Below are positions 33,491-54,131 of a stretch of DNA of 64,000 nucleotides, one piece after another (position 1 is the first letter of the stretch; the number at the start of each line of letters is the position of its first letter). The stretch covers positions 37,461 through 101,460 of the forward strand of contig CAYMYN010000005.1 in NCBI GenBank assembly GCA_964394665.1, given 5' to 3'. The notes below the pieces were generated by a model. That model did no database searches. It saw only the letters and a program-made list of their open reading frames with translations, and was not told where the DNA came from. The position numbers and the translations under genes were made by a program. The DNA comes from an uncultured Planctomycetaceae bacterium (GTDB taxonomy: Bacteria > Planctomycetota > UBA1135 > GCA-002686595).

Positions 33491-36400
33491 TCAGGGCAGC
33501 CTCGCGCGCAGGAGCCCGCCCTCGGGGAGCTCGAGCCGCTCGAGGCTGGGCCAGGCGCGCGGATCCTCGCCCGCGAGCGCCGCCCGCTCCCCCGGCGCCG
33601 GCGGCCGCACGACGCGCAACGAGCCGGCGGGAACCGGGTCGGGCGCCGCGCGGCCCTCGCCGTCGGGAAGCAGCGGGACCAGCGCGAAGCAGGTCCCGGA
33701 TCCCTCCCAGACCACGAACGGCACGCGACCGGGCTCCACGGCTGGGACGTTGGTGAGCTCGAGCCTGCCGACGGGGAGGCGCTGGCGCCACTCGAGCGCG
33801 CCGCCATCGGCCTCGATCTCGTCGAGCAGGCGCAGGCCGCGCGGGCAGGTGATGTCCAGGAGGTAGGTGCCCGGGACCTCGAGCTCGAAGGCGAAGCGGC
33901 CATCGGCGTCCAGGCGCGTCTCCTGGAAGGTGGCGGGCCCGGCGACTGCCAGCGGCACCAGCTCGACGTGCCAACCCTCGCGCTCGACGCCCTCGGCCTC
34001 GAGGTGGCCCGAGAGCCGGCCCGCGCGCCGCTCGCCGGCCAGGTCGAAGCGCGTCACGGCGCCCTCGAAGACCTCGCAGTTCCAGGGGAGCTCGGCGTGC
34101 GGCGGGCGCGAGCCGTCCACGCTGAGGTCGTTCCCGCCCCCGGGCGACCGGTCGTCGATGGGACACACCAGCCAGCGCCCCGGGGTCAGGTTCGCCAGCC
34201 CATAGCGGCCGTCCGGGCCCGCGCGGGCGGTGCGCAACTGTCCGTCGCCGCGCGAGGCCGCCACCACCCGCCCGACCGCGGGCCGACCGTCCGCGTGCTC
34301 CACGCGGCCCTCGATCGAGCCCCCCGCGCCGAGCTCGAGCTCGAGCCCCGAGAGACCGACGCCGGGCTCGAGCTCGAAGGGGCCGAGCTCCGCCGGCGCG
34401 CGGCCCGCGACCTGCGCCCGCACGACGTAGCGTCCGCCGGCGCGCAGCGTGAGCTCGAAGCGCCCGTCCGCGTCCGTGCGGGCGCGGACCTCGGGGTCGG
34501 GCTCGATCCAGATCGGGAAGCCGCCCCGCGTCGCCCGCGTCGTGAGGAGCGCATGGAGGCCGACCTCGACGTCCGCCGCGGGCGCACCGGCCTCGCTCAC
34601 ACGGCCGCGCACGCCGGGCAGCGGGTTCAAGGTGCAGTCCAGCACCTGCGCGTCGACGAGCTGTCCCGGGTCGAACGGGCCGAGCTCGCGCTGGTCGAAG
34701 CCCGGGGCGACCACGAGCAGCGTGAAGGGCCGCGTGGGCAGGCGCAGCGGACCTGGGACGAGCCGCTCGACCGAAGCCCCGGCGTCCTCGACGCGCAGCT
34801 CCCCCGTCCAGTCCTCGATCGGAGAGCCGTCCGCCGCGAGCACCCGCAGGCGCGCGTGCCGGGGCGGCTCGAAGCGCAGCACGAGTCCGCGCGTCCCTCC
34901 GCGGACCCCGCGCCGCTCGACCTGGGCGAAGCGGTCGTGCGGATCGCGGGCCGTGAGGTCCCAGGTGCCGGTCCATTGCAGGCGCACGCGGAAGTTCCCC
35001 TGCGCGTCGGCCACGGCCAGGGAGCTCGAGCTGCGCCAGAGGGTCTTGCCGCGCACGAAGATCGGCGCATGGGGCACGGGTACGCCCTCGGGATCGACCA
35101 CGGAACCCACGATGCGGCGCTCGGCCTCGAGCTCGGTGACGACGATCCGCACGCCGCGGGTCCCATGGTTCGGGCGGATCTCGACTCCGTCGCGTCCCCC
35201 GCTCCACATCCTGTCGTCGGACTCGGCGCTCAGGGACACGTTGCCCGCCAGCAGGCCCTCCAGCCGGAAGCGACCGAGCTCGTCCGTGCGCGCCTCGCTC
35301 GCGCCGAGGGCGGTCGTCTCGCTCAGGCGCATCGACCCGCCGGGCAGCACGCGCTGCGCCCCCGCGACCCGCACGCGCACCCCGGCGACGGGCTCCCCCC
35401 GCCCGTCGACCACGACCCCCTCGGCCGCGCCCCCCGCCCGCAGCACCACGTCGCCCAGGTCGATGGGCTCGCCCGCCCGCGCGCTGACGCGCAGGGAATC
35501 GTTGGCGAAGCCCGCGCGGCGGAAGGACAGGGTGTGGTGCCCCGGACCGGGGAGCGGCCGCACGGCGAGCTCGGCGCGCCCGTCGGCGCCCGTGTGCGTG
35601 CCCTGCGCGATGCTCCCCGGCGAGACGTCGACGCGCGCACCCCCGATGGGGGCCCCTTGCCCGTCGACCAGGCGCAGCCGCAGGCGGGCCAGGGGCTCGG
35701 CCGCGGATCCGCCGGCCTCCCCAGCGGGTTCCGGCTCGCGCGCGACGAGCGCCGTGCGGAGCGAGCCCTGCGCCGGATCGTCGGCCGCGTCGACGGCAGC
35801 GGAACCCGACGCGGCGGGCAGGGGCAGGAAGGCCAGGTCCTGCGCCGGGGCGTCGGCGCGCTCGCCCCCGCCCAGGAGGCGCACGCCCAGCAGCACGAGG
35901 CACAACGAACCGGCCAGGGCCGACGTCAGCACGAGGGTCTTCATCGCGAGGGCTCCGAGGATGGGGATGGGAAGACCTCCCGCGCCGGCGAGTTGGGCCC
36001 GCGGGCCGAGGAGCGGCGCCAGGGCCGCGCACCAGCCCCCACGGCCCCCGCCCTTGCGGCGCTCCAGGTGTGCGCGCAGCTCGGCCAGGGCGCTGTGCAG
36101 CCGCCAGCGCACGGTGCCCGCCGGGACGCCGCTGCGGCGCGCGATCTCGGCGCCGGTGAGGCCCTCGAAGTAGCGCAACAGCAGCGTCTCGCGCAGGGGC
36201 TCGTCGAGCGCCAGGACGGCCTCGATCAGCAGCCCCTGCGATTCGGCCCGCGCCGCCAGCTCGGCGGCCGAGGGCAGGGCCTCGTCGCGCGCCGCCGCGG
36301 CTTCGCGGGCCTCGACGCGCCGCCGGCGCCGGGCCCGCTGGCGCGCCGCGCTGCCGAGCACGCGCCCGAGCCAGGGCCGCGGGTCGCCCCCCGCGCGCGG

Positions 36401-36544
36401 AGGGCGGCGCAGGGCCGCCAGCCAGGTCTCCTGCAGCACCTCGTCCGCCTCGCCCTCGCCGACCAGGCGCCGGGCCAGGTCCCGGGCCCACGCGGAGTGG
36501 GCCAGCAGGGCTTCGATGGGGACGGGCGGGAGGGCGTCGCTCAT
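33491..36544 (-). CDS. ECF sigma factor fused to a TM segment and ~800-aa extracytoplasmic carboxypeptidase-regulatory-like repeat region (paralog of 20631-23771)
   Basis: N-terminal sigma regions 2 and 4 (VLQETWLAALRRPP...LLLRYFEGLTGAEIARRSGVPAGTVRWRLHSALAELR). Then, in-frame, MKTLVLTSALAGSLCLVLLGVRLL (TM) and repeats (GVRVRVAGAQ..., GRFELTLRAGGRYVVRAQV). 1017 aa uninterrupted. Confidence 0.7.
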   Translation of the reverse strand: MSDALPPVPIEALLAHSAWARDLARRLVGEGEADEVLQETWLAALRRPPRAGGDPRPWLGRVLGSAARQRARRRRRVEAREAAAARDEALPSAAELAARAESQGLLIEAVLALDEPLRETLLLRYFEGLTGAEIARRSGVPAGTVRWRLHSALAELRAHLERRKGGGRGGWCAALAPLLGPRAQLAGAGGLPIPILGALAMKTLVLTSALAGSLCLVLLGVRLLGGGERADAPAQDLAFLPLPAASGSAAVDAADDPAQGSLRTALVAREPEPAGEAGGSAAEPLARLRLRLVDGQGAPIGGARVDVSPGSIAQGTHTGADGRAELAVRPLPGPGHHTLSFRRAGFANDSLRVSARAGEPIDLGDVVLRAGGAAEGVVVDGRGEPVAGVRVRVAGAQRVLPGGSMRLSETTALGASEARTDELGRFRLEGLLAGNVSLSAESDDRMWSGGRDGVEIRPNHGTRGVRIVVTELEAERRIVGSVVDPEGVPVPHAPIFVRGKTLWRSSSSLAVADAQGNFRVRLQWTGTWDLTARDPHDRFAQVERRGVRGGTRGLVLRFEPPRHARLRVLAADGSPIEDWTGELRVEDAGASVERLVPGPLRLPTRPFTLLVVAPGFDQRELGPFDPGQLVDAQVLDCTLNPLPGVRGRVSEAGAPAADVEVGLHALLTTRATRGGFPIWIEPDPEVRARTDADGRFELTLRAGGRYVVRAQVAGRAPAELGPFELEPGVGLSGLELELGAGGSIEGRVEHADGRPAVGRVVAASRGDGQLRTARAGPDGRYGLANLTPGRWLVCPIDDRSPGGGNDLSVDGSRPPHAELPWNCEVFEGAVTRFDLAGERRAGRLSGHLEAEGVEREGWHVELVPLAVAGPATFQETRLDADGRFAFELEVPGTYLLDITCPRGLRLLDEIEADGGALEWRQRLPVGRLELTNVPAVEPGRVPFVVWEGSGTCFALVPLLPDGEGRAAPDPVPAGSLRVVRPPAPGERAALAGEDPRAWPSLERLELPEGGLLRARLP

Positions 36545-36704
36545 GGGTCTTCGACCCGTTCCATGCCGCGGGAGCCCGAAGCGTTGGCGTTTCCTCTCAC
36601 TTTCCGCCCCCCGCGGTCGGGCCCTGTTCCGGCCGCCCGGGGAACGGGCGCTCCGCCGACGGCCGCCGGACCCGATCCTACCCCGGGTGCCCCGGGCGCG
36701 GGGC

Positions 36705-37442
36705 CTACTCGAGGCGTGCGCCCTTGGCGGTGTAGAAGGCGAGCAGGTCCTCCCGGGCGGCGCGCGTGAACTTGCGCCAGACGCCGCCGGACCAGTCGCG
36801 GCCCGCGAGGCCTCGCTCGTCGTAGTGCTGGGCGGCTACGCGGTCGAAGGCGTCGATCTCGGCCAGCAGGGCGTCGTCGTCGAGGTAGCGCTCGCGCATC
36901 CACAGCGCGGCGAGCGGCAAGCGCGGGCGCCGAGCGGTCGGGATGGCGGGGTCGGGTGCGCCGGCGCACAGGCCGAAGAGCGGCCACACGCCCGCGGGCA
37001 ACTCGAGCAGGGCGTCGACCTCGATCAGGCGGTTGCGCAGGGCGCCGATGTAGCAGGTGCCGTAGCCCAGTGCCTCGAGGGCCAGGGTCAGATTCTGCGC
37101 GAAGAGACACGCGTCGACGACGGCCAGGAGGAAGGTCTCGAAGTTCGAGACGTAGCTCGCGCCGGCGCGCTCGGCCAGCAGGCGGTGACGGCGCGTGTCG
37201 CCGCAGACCACGAAGAACGCGCCGGCGGTCTCGACCTGGGTCTGGTCGGCGCACAGGTGCGCCAATCGCGAGCGCACGGCGGGCTCGCTGATCTGGATCA
37301 GGGAGTAGGCGTGGATCCAGCTCGACGTGGCTGCCTGGCGGGCGGCCGTGATCGCGTCGCGGAGCTGCTCTTCGGGGACCGGCTCGGGAAGGAAGGAGCG
37401 CACCGAGCGGTGGGCGGCCATGAGCTCCAACAGGGGGTGCAT
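36705..37442 (-). CDS. Oxygen-insensitive NAD(P)H nitroreductase (NfsA-like)
   Basis: N-terminus HRSVRSF, nitroreductase fold motifs. 245 aa. Confidence 0.75.
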   Translation of the reverse strand: MHPLLELMAAHRSVRSFLPEPVPEEQLRDAITAARQAATSSWIHAYSLIQISEPAVRSRLAHLCADQTQVETAGAFFVVCGDTRRHRLLAERAGASYVSNFETFLLAVVDACLFAQNLTLALEALGYGTCYIGALRNRLIEVDALLELPAGVWPLFGLCAGAPDPAIPTARRPRLPLAALWMRERYLDDDALLAEIDAFDRVAAQHYDERGLAGRDWSGGVWRKFTRAAREDLLAFYTAKGARLE

Positions 37443-37534
37443 GGGTACAGGATAGGCGCCGCGAGCGGCTGGAGCTCCCCGCTGGCGCGACCTGCGAGGC
37501 CCTCGGGACCCGGAGGCGAGGTAGCATCGGGGAG

Positions 37535-40504
37535 ATGGTGGTGCCGCCCGATCCCGCCGGACCCGAAGCGCAGACGCGCTGGGCCCGCGTGCGAGCGCTG
37601 GTCGAGGCTGCGCTCGACGTGCCGGCCACCGAGCAGCGGGCCATGCTCGCCGGACTCGAGCGAGATCCGGAGCTGGTCGAGGAGGCGCTCGGGTTGCTCG
37701 GGGCGGGCGAGGGCCCCGATCCGCCGCCGATGCCGGCGGTCGCGGGGATGTGGGACGGGCCGCGATCGGAGGAGGACGAGGAAGCGCCGGCGCGCCTGGG
37801 TCCCTATCGCGTGCTCCAGCGCATCGGCGCGGGCGGGATGGGCACCGTGCACCTGGCGCTGCGCGACGATGGGGAGTTCGCCAAGCGCGTGGCGGTCAAG
37901 ATCGTCAAGCGCGGCATGGACACCGAGGAGGTGCTGCGGCGTTTCGAGCAAGAGCGTCAAGTGCTCGCCTCCCTCGACCACCCGGGCATCGCGCGCGTGC
38001 TCGACGGCGGTCGGTGCCCCGACGGGCGTCCGTACCTGGTGATGGAGCTGGTCGAGGGACTGCCCATCGATCAGTGGTGCGACCACGAACGCCTGGGCGT
38101 GCGCGAGCGCATCGAGCTGTTCATCCAGGTCTGCGACGCCGTGGCCGACGCCCATCGCAGCCTGGTGGTCCACCGCGACATCAAGCCCTCCAACGTGCTC
38201 GTGACGCGCGATGGTCGGCCCAAGCTGCTCGACTTCGGCATCGCCAAGGTGCTCGACGCTCGCCAGGGCTTCGCGACGATCGACTGGACGATTTCGCCAC
38301 TCAAGCTCCTGACTCCCGCTTACGCCAGCCCCGAGCAGGTGCGCGGGGACCCGGTGACCACCGCCAGCGACGTGTACTCGCTGGGTGTCGTGCTCTACCT
38401 GCTCCTGACGGGCCGCACGCCGTTGCGCTTCGAGACCGGTTCGCCGGCCGAGATCGAGCGCGTCGTGTGCCGGGTCGAGCCCGAACGGCCGAGCACGAGC
38501 CTGATCACGACCGCGCGCCGCGTCGGCGTGGCTCCGGAGGCGCGCGATGCGGCGACGGGCGACCAGACGCGCGAGCTGGCGACGCTCCGCTCCACGACCC
38601 CCAAGTCGCTGCGCCGCGCGCTGAGCGGGGACCTCGACACGATCGTCCTGGAAGCGCTGCGCAAGGAGCCCCGACGGCGCTATGCCTCGGCCGCGGAGCT
38701 CGCCGCCGACCTGCGTCGTCACCTGCGCGGGCTGCCGGTGCTGGCGCGGCCCGACAGCCTCGCGTACCGCAGCTCGCGTTTCGTGCGGCGCAATCGCCTG
38801 GCGGTCGCCGCCGCCGCGCTGGTGCTCGGCTCGCTCGTGGGCGGCCTGGCGTTGGCGCGGACGCAGTACGCGCGCGCCGAGCGGGCGCGCTTGGCCCTCG
38901 CCGAGCAGCTCGAGATCGACCGGGCGCGGGCGCTCGAGCTGGAGCGCCTGGCGGAGGACCTCGGGGAACAACGCGCCCTGGCCGTGGACGCGCGCTCGGA
39001 GGCCGAGCGCCGACTGGCGGAGGTCGAGCGGCTCAACGAGGAACTCGAGCATCAAAGGGGCCTCGCGCTCCAGCGCCTGGCGGACGTGCGCAGCTTCGCC
39101 ACGGACCTGGCTTTCCGCGTCCACGGAGAGCTGGTCCCCATCGAGAACACCGAGAAGGCGCGCGCGCTGGTCGTCGGCCTGGGACTGGGCTTCCTCGACC
39201 GTCTGTCGCGCGACGTGGGCGACGACCCCTCGTTCCAACGCCTGTTGGTCGGTTCGCACCTGCGCATGGTGGAGGTGCAGCTCCAGGAGCCCGGGCCCCA
39301 GGACGAGCGCCAGCGCGCGGCGCTCGTCAGCGCGGAGCGCGCGGTGGCGCTCGGGGAGGCGCTCCACGCGACCGACTCGGCATCGATCCCCAACCGGTTC
39401 GCGCTCGCCTCGGCGTGCTTCCATCAGGGGCGTCTGTTGTCCTGGCTCGGCCGACGTGCCGAAGCCCGCGAAGCCCTCGAGCGGGCGCGGGAGCTGGGCG
39501 AAGCCGACGGGGGAGCGCTCCAGACGCACAACGGGCTCGCGATCTACCTCGGATCGGCCCTCGGCGAGCTGGCCGCGCTCCTGGCGGACTCGGGCGACGT
39601 GAGCGGAGCGCTCGAGCGTGTCGACGAGGCCATCCGTCAGATGGAGGCCCTGGCCGAGCGCATGCCCAGCACCGCCGAGACCCTCGCGGGGCTCGTGCGC
39701 CAGCGCGCCCAACTGCTCGCTGCCCGTGGCGAGCTCGAACACAGCGTTGCGGAGCTCGAGCGCGCGGCCGAGCTGCTCGCCGAGCTCCTGCGCTCCGATC
39801 CGACGCACCACATTCGCCGCCAGAACCTGCGCGCGATGAACGAGGAGCTGGCCGCGCTGTTGCCGCGGGTCGGGCGCGATGGGGACGCGTTGGAGCTCGT
39901 CGAGAGTCTGCTCGACTCGGCCGAGCAACGGCTCGCCACCGAGGGCCGAGGCCGCGGCACGCTGGTGGACCAGTTCACGGCCCTGCGGCTGCGGGCGGAC
40001 CTGCTCGGGCGTGCGCGTCGCTGGGACGAGGCCCACGGCGCCGCACGGGTCCTCCTGGCGGTGGCGCGCGAGCTACGCGACCTCGATCCGAGCGGGTTCG
40101 GGGCCCGCGGCGACCTCGGGCTGACCCTCGCGCGCACGGCGGAGGCCGCGCTGGCCGTGGGCGCGCTCGAGGATGCCTCCCACGCGATCCACGAGGCGCA
40201 GCGTCTGTTCGAGGGCCTTCGGCGCGAGGAGTCCGAGTCACCGCGCGTCCGCCAGGGGCTGCTGGTGATCCACGCGCTGCGGGCCGAGGTGGCCGAGACG
40301 TTGGCCGGTGCCGCCGACGGTCCAGCGCGCCGCGACCAGTGGCGGAACGCGCTGGCGGCCTGGAACGAAGCCGAGGACTTGATGCGCTTCCACGCGCCGG
40401 TCGATCGTTGGGGCGCGCCCGATCCCTCCTTCGCGCGCCGCGTCGCCGAGGGCCGGCAGCGCTGCGCCGCGGCCCTCTCGGACTCCGAGGCCAAGGAGCG
40501 TTGA
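37535..40504 (+). CDS. Ser/Thr protein kinase with an N-terminal ECF-sigma-associated domain and a C-terminal TM plus TPR-like helical region
   Basis: Hanks kinase motifs (GAGGMGTVHLA, VAVK, HRDIKPSNVL, DFG, SPE). N-terminal RWARVRALVEAALDVP...ERDPELVEEALGLL. TM (LAVAAAALVLGSLVGGLALA) then a long helical C-terminus. 989 aa. Confidence 0.85.
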   Translation: MVVPPDPAGPEAQTRWARVRALVEAALDVPATEQRAMLAGLERDPELVEEALGLLGAGEGPDPPPMPAVAGMWDGPRSEEDEEAPARLGPYRVLQRIGAGGMGTVHLALRDDGEFAKRVAVKIVKRGMDTEEVLRRFEQERQVLASLDHPGIARVLDGGRCPDGRPYLVMELVEGLPIDQWCDHERLGVRERIELFIQVCDAVADAHRSLVVHRDIKPSNVLVTRDGRPKLLDFGIAKVLDARQGFATIDWTISPLKLLTPAYASPEQVRGDPVTTASDVYSLGVVLYLLLTGRTPLRFETGSPAEIERVVCRVEPERPSTSLITTARRVGVAPEARDAATGDQTRELATLRSTTPKSLRRALSGDLDTIVLEALRKEPRRRYASAAELAADLRRHLRGLPVLARPDSLAYRSSRFVRRNRLAVAAAALVLGSLVGGLALARTQYARAERARLALAEQLEIDRARALELERLAEDLGEQRALAVDARSEAERRLAEVERLNEELEHQRGLALQRLADVRSFATDLAFRVHGELVPIENTEKARALVVGLGLGFLDRLSRDVGDDPSFQRLLVGSHLRMVEVQLQEPGPQDERQRAALVSAERAVALGEALHATDSASIPNRFALASACFHQGRLLSWLGRRAEAREALERARELGEADGGALQTHNGLAIYLGSALGELAALLADSGDVSGALERVDEAIRQMEALAERMPSTAETLAGLVRQRAQLLAARGELEHSVAELERAAELLAELLRSDPTHHIRRQNLRAMNEELAALLPRVGRDGDALELVESLLDSAEQRLATEGRGRGTLVDQFTALRLRADLLGRARRWDEAHGAARVLLAVARELRDLDPSGFGARGDLGLTLARTAEAALAVGALEDASHAIHEAQRLFEGLRREESESPRVRQGLLVIHALRAEVAETLAGAADGPARRDQWRNALAAWNEAEDLMRFHAPVDRWGAPDPSFARRVAEGRQRCAAALSDSEAKER

Positions 40505-40513
40505 GCGCGGCGC

Positions 40514-40771
40514 TCAGCGCCGATCCCGCGGCTCCCGGTCCTCCGCGCCCTCCCCGGGGCCGGATGGGCGCAACCAGGGCAGCCCCAATCCGGTGGGAGG
40601 CTCGAGGGTGTCCTCGGCCCCCTCCTCCAGCCGCAGCAGGGCGCTCAGCTCGCGCGCGAGCTCGGGATCCTGTCGCTCGAGATCTCGCCAGTGAGCGTGC
40701 CGTTCCTCCGGCTCCAGCCACAGCAACGCCTCGAGCGCGGGACGAACGCGCATCCAGTGCCCATCCTCCAT
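40514..40771 (-). CDS. Orphan 85-aa ORF resembling only the N-terminal (sigma-associated) domain of the ECF-linked Ser/Thr kinases; possible standalone anti-sigma-like peptide or kinase gene remnant
   Basis: GGAGG ribosome-binding site 6 nt upstream of ATG 40771, 43 nt downstream of the ECF sigma gene. Protein MEDGHWMRVRPALEALLWLEPEERHAHWRDLERQDPELARELSALLRLEEG parallels the kinase N-termini (RWARVRALVEAALDVPATEQRAMLAGLERDPELVEEALGLL at 37535; RHRRVKELFLAACDLGVDERSAFLAREC at 51504). Confidence 0.45.
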   Translation of the reverse strand: MEDGHWMRVRPALEALLWLEPEERHAHWRDLERQDPELARELSALLRLEEGAEDTLEPPTGLGLPWLRPSGPGEGAEDREPRDRR

Positions 40772-40814
40772 CGAAGCCTCCAGGTAGGAAGGCGAGGAAT
40801 CGGCGCGTCGTCCC

Positions 40815-41393
40815 TCACGATTCCGCGCCGTCGTCGGAGCCCGGACCGAGCTCGCGTCGCAGCCACAAGCGCGCCACGCGCCAGTGTCGCTCGACCGTCG
40901 CGGTCGAGATCTCGAGCACCCTCGCGGTCTCCTCGATCGACAAGCCGGCGAAGAAACGCAGCTCGACCAGCCGCGCGAGGGGCTCGTCCACGGCGTGCAG
41001 GCGCTCGAGGGCGTCGTGCACGGCGAGCACGTCGAGGTGGCGCTCCTCGTAGGCGGCGAGAACCCCGTCGAGGGCCGCCCGATCCCGTCCCTGGCCGCGC
41101 TTGTCGGTGCGCCGCGCGCGGGCGTGGTCGACGAGCACGTTGCGCATGGCGCGCGCCGCCACGCGCACGAAGTGGGCGCGGCTCTCCCAGCGCACCTGGG
41201 AGCCCACCAGACGCAGGTAGGCCTCGTGCACGAGCGCCGTGGGTTGCAGGGTGTGGTCGCCGCGCTCGCCGTCCATCGCGCGCCCGGCCTGGCGGCGCAG
41301 CTCGGCGTAGACCAGCGGCAGGAGCTCCTGGGCCGCGGCGCCATCCCCGGCCGACATGCGGTCCAGCAGGCGCGTGGCCTCGCTCGGTTCCAT
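40815..41393 (-). CDS. ECF-like sigma factor of the Ser/Thr-kinase-associated type
   Basis: MEPSEATRLLDRMSAGDGAAAQELLPLVYAELRRQAGRAMDGERGDHTLQPTALVHEAYLRL ... VELRFFAGLSIEETARVLEISTATVERHWRVARLWL. The annotated 970-aa extension of this frame is rejected because it runs antisense through the signal-peptide gene at 41622. Confidence 0.8.
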   Translation of the reverse strand: MEPSEATRLLDRMSAGDGAAAQELLPLVYAELRRQAGRAMDGERGDHTLQPTALVHEAYLRLVGSQVRWESRAHFVRVAARAMRNVLVDHARARRTDKRGQGRDRAALDGVLAAYEERHLDVLAVHDALERLHAVDEPLARLVELRFFAGLSIEETARVLEISTATVERHWRVARLWLRRELGPGSDDGAES

Positions 41394-41621
41394 GGGCCGA
41401 TTGTCGCATCCGCTGGCGGGGATGCGAAGCCCAGCGGCGTCGCCGAGCTCCAACGGCCTCCCGCGCCCCCGCGGGCCGGGCCACGTCGGTGTTCCGGAGA
41501 ACTTTCGCCCGCTGCGTGATGGGCAGCGCGGCCCGATCTCGCCGACCCCTGGCGGAGCGTGGGTTCCAAGGCACGGCCCGCTCCCGACCGAGACGATCCC
41601 GTGCGACGAGGAGATGACGAC

Positions 41622-43847
41622 ATGATGTGGAAGAAGACGGCTACGACCCTGTTCCTGGGCGGCCTGGCGTTCGCCGGCACCGCCCGCGATCCCCAGAACC
41701 CGTTCCCCGCGCCGAGCAACGATCCGGCCGCCGACGCGCGTTGGTCCACCTTCTGGTGGGCGGAGTTCGACGGCGACGGCGCCCCCGACGTGCTGGTCCT
41801 GCACCCCAACGCTCCCCTGCGCCTCTACCGCGGAACCGGCCGCGGCGAGCTCGCCGAGGTGACCCAGACCGCGGGCCTGGCGGGCGTGCTCGGCGCGCGG
41901 CAGGCGCTGTGGTTCGACTACGACGGCGATGGGCGCACCGATCTGTTCCTGACCGTCCCGGGCGGGCGCAGTCGCCTGCTGCGCAACGTCGAGGGCCAGA
42001 GCTTCGAGGACGTCGGCGCGACCAGCGGACTGGCGCTCGAGTCGAGGGTGCTGCGCGCCGAGGTCCTCGACTACGACGGCGATGGTGCGCCCGACCTGCT
42101 GTTCGTCGGGCCCGACCGCGAACGCCTGTTCCGCAACCTGGGCGCCGGTTCCTTCGAGGAACTCGTCCTGGAGCTCCCCGAGCGCGCGCCGATCGTGCAC
42201 ATGGACGTGCTGGCTCCCGCTCGCCGCGCGCCGCTGCCGCAAGACGAGCAACCCGAGCTCGACGCGCGCGTGGCGCCGCGCCCCGGCAACGCGGCCTCCG
42301 CGCCGGCGGGTTCCTCGCAGCTCTTCGGTCCCACGACGGGGCCGACCGTGACCGCAACGCCCCTCGGTCCCCAGGTGCCGGCCTCCGCGCAGCTCGTGTG
42401 CGCGGGCTCGGTCGAGGACTTCGTCAACCCCGGCACCTGCATGAACGCCTCCAGCGTGCCGACGCTGGGCATGCTGTTCCCGATCAGTCCGGAGTGGTTC
42501 GTGGACCCCTCCGGGCGCGTGGGCCTGGGCACGACCTCGCCCAGCGAGCGCTTGCACGTGGCCGGACGGATCCTGGCGTCGGACCAGATCCGAACCACGC
42601 TCCCGACCGGCACCGCGCCCTTCCAGGTCGCGTCCACCACGTTGGTGACCAACCTGAACGCCGATCTGCTCGACGGCCTCCATGCGAACGCCTTCCGCCT
42701 CACGGCGAACCCGATCGGGACCGCCGACCTGGCCAACGCCGCGGTGACCGCGGCCAAGCTGGCGAGCGGCGCGGTGAACAGCGCCGCGATCCTCGACGGA
42801 TCGATCGTGAACGCGGACGTCTCGGCCTCGGCGGCCGTCGCGGGGACCAAGATCGTGCCGAGCTTCGGCGCGCAGAACGTCGTCACGACCGGCCGCGGAG
42901 GCTTCGGGACGACCGGTCCGAACTCGACCCTGCACGTCAACGCCCCCGCGGGCGACGACGCCTTCCGGGTGCAGAGCGCGGGAGCGACGAAGTTGCTCGT
43001 GGCCCAAGGCGGAGGCGTCTCGATCGGCACGAACCTCCTGACGCCGCCGCCGAACGGGCTCTACGTCCACGGCAACCTCGGCGTCGGCAACACCGCGCCG
43101 ACCTTCAAGCTCGACGTCACCGGAGACGTGAACGCGAGCGGCACCATTCGCCAGGGCGGCTCGGTCGTGGTCGGGGCGACGGGCCTGTTCTTCGGCAAGG
43201 ACACCGGTTGGCCGAACCTCGCCTACAACCTCGGCACGTCGGGGCTGGGCATGGGCAGCCCGTCGGCCAACAACCTGGCCTTCCAGACCCTCGGGCTCGA
43301 GCGCCTGCGGATCACGAACTCGGGACGCGTCGGCATCGGCGTGTCGACTCCCGGGTTCCGTCTGGACCTGCCCAACATCGCCAGCGTCGACGGTCAGGGG
43401 CGCGCGAACGCCTGGACCACCTACTCCTCGCGGCGTTGGAAGGAGAACGTGCAGACGATCCCGGGCGCCCTCGAGCTCGTGCTGCGCCTGCGCGGCGTGA
43501 CCTTCGACTGGACCGCGGAGAGCGGTGGCGGCAAGGACGACGTCGGGTTCATCGCCGAGGAGGTCGGCGCCGTGGTGCCCCAGCTCGTCGCGTGGGAAGA
43601 GGACGGCGTGAATGCCAAGAGCCTCAAGTACGACCGCATCTCGGCCCTGACCGTCGAGGCCATCAAGAGCCAGCAGGTGCTGATCGAGGAGCTGCGGGGC
43701 GAGCTCGAGCTCGAGCGGGAGCGGCACCTGGCCGAGATGGCGCTCGCCGAAGGCCGCGTGGCCGAGCTCGAGCGCCAGGTGGCCGAGCAGGGCCAGCGCC
43801 TCGAGCGCGTGATCGCGGCCCTCGCGGCGGTGATCGAGGCGCGCTGA
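41622..43847 (+). CDS. Secreted FG-GAP/VCBS-repeat protein with a tail-fibre-like domain and a C-terminal peptidase-S74 intramolecular chaperone domain
   Basis: GAGGAG ribosome-binding site 8 nt upstream. MMWKKTATTLFLGGLAFAGTA signal peptide. DYDGDGRTDL / DYDGDGAPDL calcium-binding-like repeats. GLGTTSPSERLHVAGRI...ANAAVTAAKLASGAVNSAAILDGSIVNADV is a tail-fibre motif. C-terminal RRWKENVQTIPGALELVLRLRGVTFDW...DVGFIAEEVGAVVPQLV...KSLKYDRISALTVEAIKSQQ is S74/endosialidase-chaperone-like. Coiled-coil tail. Confidence 0.7.
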   Translation: MMWKKTATTLFLGGLAFAGTARDPQNPFPAPSNDPAADARWSTFWWAEFDGDGAPDVLVLHPNAPLRLYRGTGRGELAEVTQTAGLAGVLGARQALWFDYDGDGRTDLFLTVPGGRSRLLRNVEGQSFEDVGATSGLALESRVLRAEVLDYDGDGAPDLLFVGPDRERLFRNLGAGSFEELVLELPERAPIVHMDVLAPARRAPLPQDEQPELDARVAPRPGNAASAPAGSSQLFGPTTGPTVTATPLGPQVPASAQLVCAGSVEDFVNPGTCMNASSVPTLGMLFPISPEWFVDPSGRVGLGTTSPSERLHVAGRILASDQIRTTLPTGTAPFQVASTTLVTNLNADLLDGLHANAFRLTANPIGTADLANAAVTAAKLASGAVNSAAILDGSIVNADVSASAAVAGTKIVPSFGAQNVVTTGRGGFGTTGPNSTLHVNAPAGDDAFRVQSAGATKLLVAQGGGVSIGTNLLTPPPNGLYVHGNLGVGNTAPTFKLDVTGDVNASGTIRQGGSVVVGATGLFFGKDTGWPNLAYNLGTSGLGMGSPSANNLAFQTLGLERLRITNSGRVGIGVSTPGFRLDLPNIASVDGQGRANAWTTYSSRRWKENVQTIPGALELVLRLRGVTFDWTAESGGGKDDVGFIAEEVGAVVPQLVAWEEDGVNAKSLKYDRISALTVEAIKSQQVLIEELRGELELERERHLAEMALAEGRVAELERQVAEQGQRLERVIAALAAVIEAR

Positions 43848-43877
43848 ACCGAGGATCTCGGTTCGGAGCCCGAGGAC

Positions 43878-43908
43878 GGAGCGCGGAGGGCTCGGCTCTC
43901 CGCGCTCC
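43878..43908. terminator. Bidirectional terminator-like hairpin (11-bp stem GGAGCGCGGAG / CTCCGCGCTCC, 9-nt loop) between convergent genes
   Basis: Perfect inverted repeat read from sequence, in the 70-bp gap between the tail-fibre-like gene (+) and gnd (-). Confidence 0.5.
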
Positions 43909-43917
43909 GCTCGCCCC

Positions 43918-45336
43918 TCAGCCCTGCGAACGCGGCCACTCGGTGTGCTGCGCGACGCCCGGTTCGTCCGCGCGTTCGTAGGTGTGGCTGCCGAAGTAGT
44001 CGCGTTGGGCTTGGATCAGGGCCGCGCTGCCGCGGGCGGTGGTCAGCGTGTCGAACCAGGCGAGGGACGTGGCCAGGCCCGGGACGGGCAGGCCCGCGCG
44101 CGCGGCCGCGGCCACGACGCGGCGCCAAGCGGGAAGGCGCTGGCCGAGGCGCGCGACGAAGGCCGGGGCGAGGACCAGGGACTCGAGCTCCGGATCGGCG
44201 CGGAAGGCGGAGGCGACGTCGCCCAGGAAACGCGCGCGGATGATGCAGCCGGCGGTCCAGATGCGCGCCATCTCCGCCAGGTCGGTGCCGTAGCCGTAGG
44301 CCCGGTCGGCCGCGCGCAGGAGCGCGAAGCCCTGCGTGTAGCTCGCGATCTTGGCCGCGTAGAGCGCGGCTTCCAGGTCGGCCGGCGTGAGGTCGCCCAG
44401 CTCCGCCGAGGGCCGCTCGAAGCGCGGCTCGGCGCGTTCGCGCAGCGCTTTCTGCGCGCTCAGGGCGCGCGCGTCGACCGCCGCCGCGAGCGTCGGGACG
44501 ACCACCCCCAGCTCGAGGGCGCTGGCCACCGTCCAGCGCCCCGTGCCCTTCTGCTGCGCGCTGTCCAGGATCGCGTCCACGAGCAGGCCCTCGCCCCGCG
44601 GGTCGCGCGCGCGGAAGATGTCGGCCGTGATCGCCACGAGGAAGCTGTCGAGCTCGCCTCGGTTCCACTCCGCGAAGACGTCGGCCACGGCGGCGCCACC
44701 GAGGCCCAGGCCGCGACGCAGGAGCAACGCCACCTCGGCGATGAGCTGCATGTCCCCGTACTCGATGCCGTTGTGCACCATCTTCACGAAGTGCCCGGCC
44801 GAGCCGCGGCCGCAGTACGCGACGCAGGGGCCGTGCTCGCCCGTGGCGGCGATCGCCACGAGCAGCGGGTGCAGCAGCTCCCAGGCTTGCCAGTCCCCAC
44901 CGGGCATGATCGAAGGCCCGAGCAGCGCGCCCTCGGCTCCGCCCGAGACCCCCATGCCGACGAAGCGCCAGGGCCGGGAGCGCGCGCGTTCCTCGCGCCG
45001 ATCGGTGTCGCGGAAGTGGCTGTTGCCCGCGTCCACCACGACGTCGTCGCGCTCGAGGAAGGGATCGAGCCCGTCCAGCACCGCGTCGACCGGCGCTCCC
45101 GCGGGCACCATCAGCACGATGCGGCGCGGCCGGGCCAGCTTGGCCACGAGTTCCTTCAGGCTCGGCGCCGCGTCGAATCCCGCCTCGGGGTGCGCGGCGC
45201 ACAGCTCGGCGGTGACCTCCGGACTGCGATTGTGGACGGCGACCGCGAATCCGCGCCGCGCGAGGTTGCGCGCGAGGTTCGCGCCCATCACGCCCAGGCC
45301 GACGACGGCCACGTCGTTGTCGCGTCGTGCGTTCAT
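43918..45336 (-). CDS. gnd: 6-phosphogluconate dehydrogenase (decarboxylating)
   Basis: MNARRDNDVAVVGLGVMGANLARN Rossmann N-terminus, GHFVKMVHNGIEYGDMQLIAE signature. 472 aa. The start overlaps the pgl stop by 4 nt. Confidence 0.9.
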   Translation of the reverse strand: MNARRDNDVAVVGLGVMGANLARNLARRGFAVAVHNRSPEVTAELCAAHPEAGFDAAPSLKELVAKLARPRRIVLMVPAGAPVDAVLDGLDPFLERDDVVVDAGNSHFRDTDRREERARSRPWRFVGMGVSGGAEGALLGPSIMPGGDWQAWELLHPLLVAIAATGEHGPCVAYCGRGSAGHFVKMVHNGIEYGDMQLIAEVALLLRRGLGLGGAAVADVFAEWNRGELDSFLVAITADIFRARDPRGEGLLVDAILDSAQQKGTGRWTVASALELGVVVPTLAAAVDARALSAQKALRERAEPRFERPSAELGDLTPADLEAALYAAKIASYTQGFALLRAADRAYGYGTDLAEMARIWTAGCIIRARFLGDVASAFRADPELESLVLAPAFVARLGQRLPAWRRVVAAAARAGLPVPGLATSLAWFDTLTTARGSAALIQAQRDYFGSHTYERADEPGVAQHTEWPRSQG

Positions 45337-50913: not shown

Positions 50914-51507
50914 ATGGCCGATCCCTCCGCTCCCGACCCCTTCGCCGACGTGACCCAGGCGCTCCACGGCCTGCGAGCCGGAGGCCCGCAGGTGTCGAGC
51001 GAACTCCTGGCGGCCCTCGTCGCCGAGCTGCGCTCGATCGCGCGCGGGTACCTGGGCGCGCAGGGAGCGAATCACACCCTGCAGCCGACGGCCCTCGTCA
51101 ACGAGGCCTTCCTCAAGCTCTTCGGCAGCGCGTCCCTGCAGAACGTGCACGATCGCGGGCACTTCTTCGCCCTGGCGGCGCGCGTCATGCGCCAGATTCT
51201 CGTCGACCACGCGCGCCAGCGCCGGGCGGCCAAGCGCGATGGAGGCGGCGTTCAGGTGACCCTGGGCGAGGACCTCGGCGTGGATGTCGTGGGGGACGGG
51301 GAGTTGCTCGACGTCGACGCGGCCCTGTCGGAGCTGGCGGAGCTCGACCCGCGCCAGGCGCGCGTCGTGGAGCTGCGCTTCTTCGCCGGGCTCGAGGTGG
51401 GCGAGGTCGCGGCGGCGCTGGGGCTCTCCGTCTCGACCGTCGAGCGCGAATGGCGCGCGGCCCGCGCGTGGCTCGGTCGGCGCATGACGGACCGGCGTTC
51501 GCCATGA
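50914..51507 (+). CDS. ECF-like sigma factor of the Ser/Thr-kinase-associated type
   Basis: SSELLAALVAELRSIARGYLGAQGANHTLQPTALVNEAFLKL ... VELRFFAGLEVGEVAAALGLSVSTVEREWRAARAWL. The stop overlaps the kinase start (ATGA). Confidence 0.8.
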   Translation: MADPSAPDPFADVTQALHGLRAGGPQVSSELLAALVAELRSIARGYLGAQGANHTLQPTALVNEAFLKLFGSASLQNVHDRGHFFALAARVMRQILVDHARQRRAAKRDGGGVQVTLGEDLGVDVVGDGELLDVDAALSELAELDPRQARVVELRFFAGLEVGEVAAALGLSVSTVEREWRAARAWLGRRMTDRRSP

Positions 51508-54131
51508 GCGCCGAGCGCCATCGACGGGTCAAGGAGCTGTTCCTGGCCGCCTGCGACCTCGGGGTCGACGAACGCAGCGCGTTCCTCGCGCGCGAGTGCG
51601 GCGCGGACGGCGAGCTGCGCCGCGAAGTCGAGGAGCTCCTCGGCGTGGACGCGGGCGGGGTGTCGGTGCTCGAGCGACAGGCCCTGGGAACGGGCCCCGG
51701 GGGCGAGCCTCGAGCCGAGGCCATCGCCGAGCACGAGATCCAACGCCTCGCCGAGCGCGCGCGAGCGCGCTGCTACGAACTCGGAGACGAGCTCGGCCGC
51801 GGCGGAATGGGGCGCATCCTGCGCATCCGCGACCTGGATCTGCGCCGCGAGCTGGCCATGAAGGTCAGCCTGGGTTGGCTGCGCGGTCAGGCCGGCCCGA
51901 GCCCGGACACGGCGCGTTTCCTGGATGAGGCGCGCATCACCGCGCGCCTCGATCACCCGGGCATCGTGCCCGTGCACGACCTCGGCGTCGACGGCGAGGG
52001 GCGCCTGTTCTTCACCATGAAGCTGGTCCAGGGGCGCGAGCTGGGTCGCGTGCTGGAGCTGGCGCGGCAGGGCGCCGAGGGTTGGAACACGACGCGCGTG
52101 GTGGGCGTCCTGCTGCAGGTGTGCGAGGCCGTCGCCTACGCGCACTCCAAGGGCGTCGTGCACCGCGACCTCAAGCCGGCCAACGTGATGGTCGGTGAGT
52201 TCGGCGAGGTCTACGTAATGGACTGGGGCATCTCGCGAGTGCTGGGCGCTGCCGCGGACAGCGTCGAGCCGCGCGGCGAGCCGTCGCCCGACTCACGCTC
52301 GGCCGCGGACTCCGCGGGCCGTACCCGCGTCGGCTCGATCCTCGGCACGCCGTACTCGATGCCCCCCGAGCAAGCGCGCGGCGAGCCGGTCGGGCCGGCT
52401 GCCGACATCTATGCCGTCGGGGCGATGCTCTACCAGGCGCTCGCCGGACGACGGCCGTACGAAGGCGATTCCGGTCGCGAGCCCGCGCAGGCGGTGCTGC
52501 AGCGCATTCTCGCGGGGCCCCCGAGGTCCTTGCGTGGACTCGCGCCGAAGGCTCCGCCCGAGCTGATCGCCATCAGCGAACGCGCCATGGCACGCGAGGC
52601 GCGCGATCGCTACGCCGACCTGCGCACGCTGGCGCAGGACCTGCGCGCCTACCTCGAGGGCCGCGTCGTGCGCGCCTATCGCACGGGCGCCCTGGCCGAG
52701 CTCAAGAAGTGGATCGCGCGCAATCGACTGGCGGCGAGCGGGATCGCGATCGCGTTGCTCGCGATCCTGGGCGGACTCGCTTGGAGCCGCCAGATCGAGG
52801 TGGAGAGCCGCCGCGAGATCGACCTCGCCTCCGACTACTTCCGGGCGCGCGTCGTTCGGGACTCCGCGGACGAGCTGTGGCCGGCGGCGCCCGCGAGCAT
52901 CCCGCGCCTCGAGGACTGGACTGCACGCGCCGAGCGTTTGCTCGCGCGTCGGAAGGTGCACGTCGAGCGCCTGCGGAGCCTCGCGGACCAGCCCGCCGCC
53001 GACCCCACCGAGCTGGGGCGCCAGCGGGCGCTCGTCGCGTACCTCGACGAGCTCGACGGCGGCGGCCGGGAAGCGGCGGGCCTGCTCGAGACCGTGCGGG
53101 CGCGTCTCGCCTTCGCGCGCAGCATCGAGGAGCGCAGCCTCACCGGTCCCGAGGTCGCACGACGCTGGCGCGACGCGATCGCGGCGAGCCGAGCGCTCCC
53201 GATCTACGCCGGGCTCGACCTCGAGCCGCAGCTCGGCTTGGTCCCGCTGGGGCCCGACCCCGTGAGCGGGCTGCTCGAGTTCGCCCACCTCGAGACCGGC
53301 GAGCCCGCGCAGCGCGACGGCGAAGGCCGGCTCGAGATGAAGCCCGAGACGGGACTGGTGTTCGTGCTCGTGCCCGGCGGGAGCTTCCACCTGGGTGCCG
53401 ACCGCGATCCGGACGGGCCCAATCACGACCCGGCCGCGGACCAGAACGAGCAGCCCGTGCGCGAAGTGACGCTGCGAGCCTTCCTGCTCTCGAAGTTCGA
53501 GCTGACCCAGGCCCAGTGGTCGCGCGTCTCCGGCCGCAACCCGAGCCGCTGGACCCCGGACAGCCGGCCCGGGGTCACCTGGACCAACCCCGTCGAGCAG
53601 GTCGACTGGAACGAGGCGACGCGCGTGCTCGAGCGCATGGGCCTGGTCCTGCCCACCGAGGCGCGCTGGGAGTACGCCTGCCGCGCGGGGACCGACACGC
53701 CTTTCTGCGTCCCGCCCGAGGAGCTCGGCCGCGTCGCCAACGTGGCCGACCGCAGCTACCAGGCCGAGTTCGCTCCCACCTACGAGGTCGAGGCCTTCGA
53801 CGACGGCTTCGCCTGCCACGGGCCCGTCGGCAGCCTGGACCCCAACGCCTTGGGCCTGCACGACATGCACGGCAACGTCTTCGAGTGGACTCGCGACGTC
53901 TACGGCAGCCACGCCCATCCCCGCGCCGCGACCGACGGCGCCAGCCTGGGGCCCGAGGAGGGGTCGCGCGGCTACTGGAGCCTCGACTACCGCGTGATCC
54001 GCGGGGGCTGCTTCGAGATCCCTGCCCATTTCGCGCGCTCCAGCCACCGCGTGAACTTCGGGCTGACGACGATCAGCCATGCGGTGGGCCTGCGCCCCGC
54101 TCGCGAGCTGGAGCGCTCCGAGCGGCGCTGA
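51504..54131 (+). CDS. Ser/Thr protein kinase with an N-terminal sigma-associated domain, one TM and a C-terminal formylglycine-generating-enzyme (SUMF1/FGE-sulfatase)-like domain
   Basis: Kinase motifs (GRGGMGRILRI, AMK, HRDLKPANVMV, DWG, PPE). TM (LAASGIAIALLAILGGLAW). C-terminal LRAFLLSKFELTQAQW...WEYACRAGTDTPF...GLHDMHGNVFEWTRD...RVIRGGCF is FGE-like. 875 aa. Confidence 0.85.
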   Translation: MSAERHRRVKELFLAACDLGVDERSAFLARECGADGELRREVEELLGVDAGGVSVLERQALGTGPGGEPRAEAIAEHEIQRLAERARARCYELGDELGRGGMGRILRIRDLDLRRELAMKVSLGWLRGQAGPSPDTARFLDEARITARLDHPGIVPVHDLGVDGEGRLFFTMKLVQGRELGRVLELARQGAEGWNTTRVVGVLLQVCEAVAYAHSKGVVHRDLKPANVMVGEFGEVYVMDWGISRVLGAAADSVEPRGEPSPDSRSAADSAGRTRVGSILGTPYSMPPEQARGEPVGPAADIYAVGAMLYQALAGRRPYEGDSGREPAQAVLQRILAGPPRSLRGLAPKAPPELIAISERAMAREARDRYADLRTLAQDLRAYLEGRVVRAYRTGALAELKKWIARNRLAASGIAIALLAILGGLAWSRQIEVESRREIDLASDYFRARVVRDSADELWPAAPASIPRLEDWTARAERLLARRKVHVERLRSLADQPAADPTELGRQRALVAYLDELDGGGREAAGLLETVRARLAFARSIEERSLTGPEVARRWRDAIAASRALPIYAGLDLEPQLGLVPLGPDPVSGLLEFAHLETGEPAQRDGEGRLEMKPETGLVFVLVPGGSFHLGADRDPDGPNHDPAADQNEQPVREVTLRAFLLSKFELTQAQWSRVSGRNPSRWTPDSRPGVTWTNPVEQVDWNEATRVLERMGLVLPTEARWEYACRAGTDTPFCVPPEELGRVANVADRSYQAEFAPTYEVEAFDDGFACHGPVGSLDPNALGLHDMHGNVFEWTRDVYGSHAHPRAATDGASLGPEEGSRGYWSLDYRVIRGGCFEIPAHFARSSHRVNFGLTTISHAVGLRPARELERSERR

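Follow-up and report, generated by a model that had tools for sequence, protein, structure and literature searches.

What is the role of an open reading frame (ORF) that stands directly behind the gene of an extracytoplasmic function (ECF) sigma factor and reads like the beginning of a Ser/Thr kinase without the catalytic part? This question is raised by a stretch of 64,000 nucleotides (nt) from an uncultured Planctomycetaceae bacterium (contig CAYMYN010000005.1), in the following called the window. The ORF (40514..40771, minus strand) is intact and comprises 85 codons from an ATG at 40771-40769 to a TGA stop, and its product of 85 amino acids (aa) has an isoelectric point of 4.7 and a mass of ~9.9 kDa. 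A GGAGG ribosome-binding site, read from the sequence, is located at 40777..40781 (minus strand), 5 nt upstream of the ATG. The gap between the stop codon of the sigma gene (40815-40817) and the start of the ORF is exactly 43 nt, and on the other side 9 nt separate the stop codon of the ORF from that of a convergent kinase gene. The ORF is called as a gene in the NCBI and Logan assemblies, too. Judged by its homology, its family and an excess of synonymous over non-synonymous change, it is very probably a real and selected gene of a sigma/kinase cassette which encodes a kinase module alone.

ECF sigma factors that are switched on by Ser/Thr phosphorylation form a recently established regulatory class. 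Sigma factors of the ECF43 type do not bind core RNA polymerase until a neighbouring kinase phosphorylates a threonine which replaces the acidic motif of region 2.2 (PMC8999054, PMC8103513, PMC13147305). The sigma factor of the locus (192 aa; 40815..41393, minus strand) belongs to TIGR02999/PF07638, with an E-value of 5.6e-54 for PF07638 and 203 bits for TIGR02999, for which the cut-off is 126 bits. Its region 2.2 reads HTLQPTALVHEAY, in which the uncharged QPTA (Q50-A53) replaces the acidic DAED-type motif. The sequence HTLQPTALVHE is conserved across all sigma orthologues, with QPTA and its Thr52 identical in each, and Thr52 (41238-41240) is the presumed phospho-acceptor. The convergent gene (37535..40504, plus strand) encodes a Hanks-type Ser/Thr kinase of 989 aa, called kinase 1 here, with a Pkinase domain at residues 91-382 (E 8.7e-39), a hydrophobic segment past residue 400 (read by eye) and weak TPR-like matches in the C-terminal region; it is the probable cognate kinase of the sigma factor. 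A sigma factor of the TIGR02999 family, a threonine-containing uncharged region 2.2, an adjacent Hanks kinase and the lack of a match to an anti-sigma family are thus found together. By motif, family and synteny the pair is of the kinase-regulated TIGR02999/ECF43-like kind, an assignment that does not extend to an individual ECF group (43 vs 59-62 or 217).

The ORF aligns with the beginning of such kinases. In a single BLASTP comparison its residues 6-51 matched residues 16-60 of kinase 1 with 21/46 identical positions (46%, E 7e-5), and a comparison of the small-protein family profile with 11 kinase N-termini by hhalign gave 98% probability and an E-value of 2.2e-13 over 64 columns. A six-frame scan of the window with a hidden Markov model (HMM) detected the module in exactly three copies, which are the small ORF, kinase 1 (~ residues 10-57, 37562-37705) and kinase 2. 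The latter (875 aa; 51504..54131, plus strand) has, after the N-terminal module, a Pkinase domain and, at its C-terminus, an FGE-sulfatase domain of the SUMF1-like type. On these alignments the small ORF and the N-terminal module of Hanks kinases linked to sigma factors are homologous beyond chance. No Pkinase match was found in the ORF, which ends after 85 residues, so the kinase domain is not in the same polypeptide. An earlier note on this DNA had described an 85-aa ORF with a GGAGG site 43 nt behind a kinase-associated-type ECF sigma gene, had compared it with the first ~50 residues of the kinases at 37535 and 51504, and had concluded that it holds only their N-terminal module while a full-length kinase with a homologous N-terminus lies convergently on the other strand; this description is confirmed.

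The small protein can be divided into three parts. Residues 1-48 (40628..40771, minus strand) form the module proper, for which AlphaFold2 (AF2) predicted helices at 3-18, 21-34 and 36-46. The block-mean confidence (predicted local distance difference test, pLDDT) was 75-92 across residues 1-50, and the tail with a pLDDT of ~50 is predicted to be disordered. Within this tail residues 56-67, LEPPTGLGLPWL (40571..40606, minus strand), make up a linker motif which was recognised in the family alignment; this motif (LEPPxGxGLPW) resembles LEPP...G(L/M)W in the linkers of the partner kinases. Residues 68-85 with the stop codon (40514..40570, minus strand) are variable in length, diverge fast and are not alignable in the family. 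For residues 1-100 of kinase 1, AF2 predicted helices at 10-27, 31-39 and 45-57, followed by low confidence. Both proteins are therefore predicted as three helices with a floppy linker, which matches the reported form of residues 1-81 of the kinase PknS, whose N-terminal helical region is invisible in the electron density of the crystallised protein (PMC13147305). Among PDB sequences the best match was 9eed_A (364 residues, 'kinase domain protein'), which was hit over residues 6-77 with an E-value of 3e-7 by a profile including the two window kinases and over residues 8-81 with an E-value of 0.02 by the small family alone; from its length and unmodelled N-terminus it is presumed to correspond to PknS(1-364) as used in the Xanthomonas citri paper. 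A kinase N-terminal module of the type of PknS residues 1-81 has no Pfam or NCBIfam model. In sequence and predicted fold the small protein agrees with such a module, that is three to four helices and a flexible linker, without a catalytic domain.

An exhaustive HMMER search of 1.84 billion representatives (E-value up to 0.001) returned 17 matches. Besides the query (P0001), the best of them were short proteins of 72-79 aa (P0003, P0004, P0006 and P0008) which align over residues 1 to ~70 and thus beyond the module alone. Most other matches were N-terminal fragments of kinases from another subfamily (MDAERWQRLSPLLDALLELEP...), and two were unrelated repetitive proteins. A profile search of a set of 5.8 billion sequences added just P0019. 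The family comprises seven protein clusters of 72-85 aa with the module and an invariant PPxGxxxWL. A six-sequence alignment (A2) contains 19 invariant columns, namely M1, then W6, R8, R10, L13, E14, L16, L17, R24, L38, A39, E41, L45 and L48 in the module, and P58, P59, G61, W66 and L67 in the tail motif, for which the consensus is (L/M)(E/D)PPxGxx(L/I)xWL. The designation of the ORF as an orphan in the earlier note has to be given up, as homologues exist in conserved synteny and form a small conserved family.

The neighbourhood of the homologues repeats that of the window. On the 44-kb contig L011 a divergent FG-GAP/Peptidase_S74 gene, a sigma gene (75% identical in its product), the small gene (43-44%) and a convergent kinase gene (1019 aa, 56%) follow each other. 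The small protein of L012 is 45% identical, with a sigma factor of 82% identity encoded upstream and a convergent ORF matching the C-terminal part of kinase 1; such an ORF is also present in L013 (small protein 54%), the contig of which begins 26 nt before the small ORF. In L014 (50-52%, as P0006) and L015 (~51%, as P0019) the sigma gene lies directly upstream, its product being ~77% and ~70% identical by eye, respectively; the contig of L014 ends past the small gene, and in L015 a partial ORF, recognised by position and orientation only, runs convergently. Altogether the orthologous sigma factors are 70-82% and the orthologous kinases 38-56% identical. Adjacency to a kinase is kept, convergently in L011-L013, as a partial convergent ORF in L015 and as a kinase in L025, a locus without the small gene that is considered below. 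The ORF and its start codon are preserved in eight sequences from at least six lineages, most of them with a purine-rich upstream site and L013 and L015 with a weak one of the GCTGGAA type. The loci show, as far as gene order and alignment can tell, a conserved cassette composed of the FG-GAP/S74 gene, the co-oriented sigma and small genes and a convergent transmembrane-type kinase with a module of its own.

Selection acts on the ORF in the deeper comparisons. The ratio of non-synonymous to synonymous substitution rates (dN/dS, Nei-Gojobori) was 0.25-0.7 at a dS of ~0.7-2. In three deep pairs the proportion of synonymous differences (pS) was 0.65, 0.55 and 0.56 and that of non-synonymous differences (pN) 0.39, 0.34 and 0.34, with Fisher p-values of 5.5e-4, 4.4e-3 and 5.3e-3, respectively; close pairs gave p-values of 0.2-0.25. 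Residues 1-67 contain a single indel, which is in-frame and covers 3 codons. The sigma factor is far more constrained than the small ORF (dN 0.11-0.21 vs 0.41-0.63). When the window is compared with L011, the identity is 44% for the small protein and 46% for the kinase's own module; since the two diverge alike, the fast change is a property of the module and no sign of decay. On this comparative evidence the ORF is a genuine, conserved small-protein gene.

In the kinase-regulated sigma family the partner kinase usually follows the sigma gene, as had been supposed before. The nearest sigma homologues outside the small-protein family are 47-54% identical and were found in metagenome-assembled genomes of Planctomycetota. 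A full-length kinase with the module stands directly after the sigma gene in L007-L010, and in L006 the kinase gene is divergent. The direct layout was also met in L022, in the second pair of the window and in L016, an ordinary sigma-then-kinase pair which was the one locus returned by a scan of metagenome contigs with the family profile. The position behind the sigma gene is thus occupied by a full kinase in L007-L010, as the earlier note had considered for related genomes, and not in the members of the small-protein family, which have the small gene and a convergent kinase, nor in L025 and L026, which have lost the small gene. In the latter two loci the sigma factor is 93%, the kinase 75%, a nitroreductase 82% and gnd 87% identical to the window. 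When L025 (1-4850) and L026 are compared with window positions 36702-44791, ~100 unalignable bases replace window positions 39926-40845; this replacement takes away the last codons of the sigma gene, the whole small ORF and ~190 residues at the C-terminal end of the kinase. The whole FG-GAP/Peptidase_S74 gene is missing there as well, so that gnd abuts the sigma gene; this is a joint loss in one lineage. No remnant of the small ORF was detectable in L025/L026. As all more distant lineages keep the small gene, its absence there is a secondary loss, and since sigma factor and kinase persist without it in L025, the small protein is not essential to the pair and is probably an accessory modulator of it.

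Where does a gene for a lone module come from? The profile search yielded 68 short matches, of which the ones located on long contigs were looked at individually. P0034, a protein of 79 aa seen on 21 contigs of several samples (L017-L020, 4426-5240), overlaps the stop codon of a sigma gene whose product is 65% identical to the second sigma factor of the window, and shares 66-76% identity with the N-terminus of kinase 2; it is followed by a methyltransferase gene, and no kinase is left nearby in this related high-GC organism. P0026 (L022:1464-5800) is a 68-aa ORF, 90% identical to the N-terminus of the adjacent kinase and followed by frameshifted remnants of a kinase domain. It is a partial tandem duplication of the kinase 5' end and provides a snapshot of the birth of a module-only ORF. 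At P0031 (L021:4441-6075) a sigma gene is followed by a module ORF of 72 aa and, after 200 nt, by a Pkinase ORF of 218 aa, and between these two ORFs the beginning of the kinase domain can still be read, though in a different frame; it is either a frameshift-split kinase or a long-read assembly error. P0081 (L024:216-518), a 100-aa ORF on a metagenome contig of 764 nt, joins the kinase N-terminal module to a piece of sigma region 4 and is either a scrambled sigma-kinase remnant or an assembly chimera. Like the small gene, P0034, P0026 and P0031 represent the same kinase module alone beside a TIGR02999 sigma gene. In contrast to the family they are of independent origin and lack PPxGxxxWL as well as conservation across diverged lineages: P0034 is akin to the N-terminus of kinase 2 and not to the small-gene family, and P0026 and P0031 show visible decay or frameshifts. 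Truncation of sigma-adjacent kinases hence yields module-only ORFs repeatedly, which makes it the likely origin of the small-gene family, too. Retention across diverged lineages together with a motif of its own was seen in the small-gene family alone among the stand-alone modules compared.

Three other readings were rejected. The small protein is no recent copy of the module of its partner kinase, because the family HMM scores P0005 and P0011, which are kinase fragments of another subfamily, with 48-54 bits and the partner kinases with 20-25. The stand-alone modules do not form one widespread family, as the other short matches turned out to be fragments at contig ends, genes with frameshifts or truncations of independent origin. 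Finally, a simple inversion of a former downstream kinase gene is insufficient on its own, since the convergent kinase has a complete module.

As a whole it appears rather likely that the small gene is a selected module-only gene, the product of which mimics the kinase module and tunes the phosphorylation of the sigma factor. The gene would have started out as the 5' part of a kinase gene beside the sigma gene, the rest of which was lost, and selection would then have preserved it. It would be co-transcribed with the sigma gene; the promoter/terminator scan found neither a terminator-like nor a sigma-70 promoter-like site in the 43-nt gap, which fits co-transcription and is no proof of it. The product would be a domain-only mimic taking up whatever partner the N-terminal module of the kinase engages. 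This partner would most likely be the sigma factor itself, because all sigma-adjacent kinases that were inspected have the module (kinases 1 and 2 of the window and those of L006-L011, L016, L022 and L025) and all but one of the stand-alone copies with a readable context lie beside a TIGR02999-type sigma gene, the exception being L013 with its short upstream sequence; alternatively, the kinase module could be the partner. With the partner occupied, sigma phosphorylation would be tuned, and as the peptide would be made together with the sigma factor, the tuning would amount to feedback. A competitor mechanism in particular can be put forward just tentatively. More doubtful still is the proposal that the three-helix module is the sigma-docking domain of ECF43-type kinases and the free copy a first 'kinase-mimic' regulator, which is made from the transcript of the sigma gene, competes with the kinase for the sigma factor and exerts negative feedback on its phosphorylation.

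Several observations weigh against this explanation. That the tuning would most likely be a dampening is a guess with respect to the direction, and the PknS paper gives the N-terminal region no function (PMC13147305). In the literature searched, a stand-alone module gene is not described and neither is a function of the module. The family is tiny, with its seven clusters among 5.8 billion sequences and with 17 matches in the exhaustive search that are mostly kinase fragments. Other module-only ORFs are plain decay products, and the loss in the L025 lineage means that the gene is dispensable. Furthermore, among near-identical strains (L001-L005, 98.4-98.8% nucleotide identity) 7-8% of the bases of the ORF differ, compared to 0.4-1.7% in the flanks, and against a near-identical strain the small ORF has 12 non-synonymous and 7 synonymous codon changes, the sigma gene 0 and 10, respectively. 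Such a hot spot of divergence fits weak constraint. A strain of 98.8% identity differs from the window by 20 substitutions in the ORF; 17 of the 20 fall in the 126 nt of linker and tail at 40524-40649 and 6 of the 20 in the segment 40514-40570, and W18R is the sole change in residues 8-41 between near-identical strains.

A similar patch was observed in the C-terminal region of kinase 1, where 11 changes are concentrated in the 38 nt at 39471-39508 (EALERARELGEA vs AALERTCELSAA). Both patches are far above the neighbouring synonymous divergence and could result from gene conversion, recombination import or local diversifying selection.

Among the alternatives to a regulator that mimics the kinase module, a positive adaptor or chaperone survives best, although it is improbable. 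The free module would bind the sigma factor or the kinase and help, for instance by stabilising the unphosphorylated sigma factor or by bringing it to the membrane kinase. Homology and synteny speak for an adaptor just as they do for the mimic, and the distribution of the gene suits it: the small gene was seen in the convergent layout only, in which kinase and sigma factor do not come from a common transcript, and the direct sigma-then-kinase operons that were read carry no intact extra module gene, the sole extra copy being the decayed duplicate P0026 in L022. A copy acting in trans looks redundant for docking, however, when the partner kinase itself still has an intact module, and in L025 sigma factor and kinase persist without help.

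Less probable again is a non-functional remnant, the surviving 5' end of a kinase gene once placed after the sigma gene and open by chance, as stops are rare in 72% GC DNA (72.6% here). Module-only ORFs do arise by kinase decay, as exemplified by P0026 and P0031, and P0034 is such an ORF past a sigma gene and with no kinase nearby; in addition, the ORF is the divergence hot spot described above, with an omega of ~0.5-0.6 between close strains, and disappeared without trace in L025. Chance alone accounts poorly for an intact ORF that retained its start, in most cases its upstream site, and its frame but for the one 3-codon indel at a dS of 0.7-2, with pN significantly below pS and W6, W66, the PP pair and the glycine invariant. 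Its rate of change is also no higher than that of the presumably functional module in the kinase. Neither a frameshift nor a premature stop was found in 8/8 sequences, and the 9-nt gap to the convergent gene leaves no room for a kinase remnant. The alternative offered in the earlier note, a remnant of a deleted kinase, is accordingly not tenable in the sense of a decaying pseudogene, with the ORF intact at a dS of ~0.7-2, pN below pS and 19 invariant columns; in the sense of an evolutionary origin from a truncated kinase it may well be correct.

A classical anti-sigma factor, which would keep the sigma factor off RNA polymerase until a signal arrives and independently of the kinase, is unlikely, more so than a remnant. 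Its usual place is that of the small gene, directly downstream of the ECF sigma gene in the same orientation, and the protein is short, acidic and predicted to be helical. Class I anti-sigma factors (ASD/ZAS, Pfam zf-HC2) are likewise small helical proteins encoded directly after an ECF sigma gene; the small protein differs from them by having no family match, no HxxxCxxC motif and no transmembrane segment. In Pfam (E up to 1) and NCBIfam (E up to 0.1) the small ORF matched no family, anti-sigma families included, and in the fold comparison that was made the predicted structure showed no match to an anti-sigma fold. Kinase-associated ECF groups are typically without an anti-sigma factor and inactive until phosphorylated (PMC7826278, PMC8999054), so that a sequestering factor would have little to do.

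The ORF's GC content by codon position (0.84/0.51/0.84) is compatible with coding and yet symmetric with the antisense frame, and the reading frame is therefore fixed by homology and conservation and not by composition. A non-coding element, that is a 3' untranslated region, a regulatory RNA or an antisense feature, is the most improbable reading: this symmetry and the end of the convergent kinase gene 9 nt away, where transcripts may overlap, would suit it, whereas protein-level homology to kinase N-termini occurs only in the frame of the ORF, pS exceeds pN in that frame, and an Rfam scan of the window gave zero matches and no terminator-like structure was seen.

The closest known relatives of the system are PknS/EcfK of X. 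citri and PknT/EcfP of Vibrio parahaemolyticus, in which an ECF43 sigma factor is activated by the neighbouring Hanks kinase and carries, as here with QPTA, an uncharged threonine motif (PMC13147305, PMC8999054). Common to them and the present pair are the adjacent membrane-type Hanks kinase and its N-terminal helical module of ~60-80 residues on a flexible linker; residues 6-81 of PknS are the best PDB sequence match of the small-protein profile. Unlike in these two systems, a third gene for the module alone is present here and the kinase gene is convergent, not co-oriented.

Eukaryotic microProteins such as LITTLE ZIPPER and Id proteins are domain-only paralogues which act as dominant-negative regulators and are encoded alongside the full-length form. 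The small protein resembles them as a short protein that consists of only the interaction domain of a larger signalling protein; it is bacterial and unrelated in fold, and a dominant-negative action of it would be hypothetical. PhyR mimics a sigma factor, and the small protein copies part of a kinase. The likeness to the PhyR-NepR-EcfG partner switch of Alphaproteobacteria (PMC7826278), in which a domain mimic regulates an ECF sigma factor, is conceptual. A copy of one interaction domain of a signalling protein might compete for a shared partner and in this way set sigma activity. PhyR and the small protein have no relation in sequence or fold, and a response-regulator receiver domain is missing here.

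If the small protein binds the sigma factor, this would define the docking mechanism of the kinases and a new kind of feedback regulator. If the module serves for docking and its free copy as a kinase mimic, a third component would be added to a system thought to have two parts, and a function would be assigned to a module of every sigma-adjacent kinase examined. In either case a selected stand-alone copy encoded with the sigma factor offers a ready-made probe for the partner of an uncharacterised kinase region. If it binds nothing, the locus documents well how a fragment of a gene can persist after the parent gene has gone. The interest is limited by the rarity of the family, its occurrence in uncultured bacteria and its dispensability in one close relative.

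The remaining genes around the cassette can be described briefly. A second TIGR02999 sigma gene (~50914-51507, plus strand) overlaps that of kinase 2 by ATGA and forms a canonical pair with it. Divergent from the first sigma gene, the FG-GAP_3/Peptidase_S74 gene identified by Pfam is located at 41559..43847 (plus strand), with the true start probably near 41622. Peptidase_S74, the intramolecular chaperone domain of endosialidases, is typically found in phage tail fibres. The gene is found beside the sigma gene in L001, L002 and L011, is absent together with the small ORF in L025, and is a candidate target of the sigma factor.

A motif conserved between three diverged lineages, TCC..GC..GCGG.TGCGACAAT, ends ~6 nt upstream of the sigma start in the window (41400-41422, minus strand), in L011 (~9280-9302) and in L014 (~160-182). 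The 165 nt upstream of the sigma gene are 100% identical in 4/5 near-identical contigs and have 3 changes in L003. The window contains no second copy of the motif, which could represent an autoregulated promoter with a very short leader. One kb from the gene of kinase 1, at 33491-36544 (minus strand), a protein of 1017 aa is encoded which begins as an ECF sigma factor with regions 2 and 4 and continues with a hydrophobic stretch (by eye), five CarboxypepD_reg repeats and a DUF4198-like region, and which thus carries a very large C-terminal extension.

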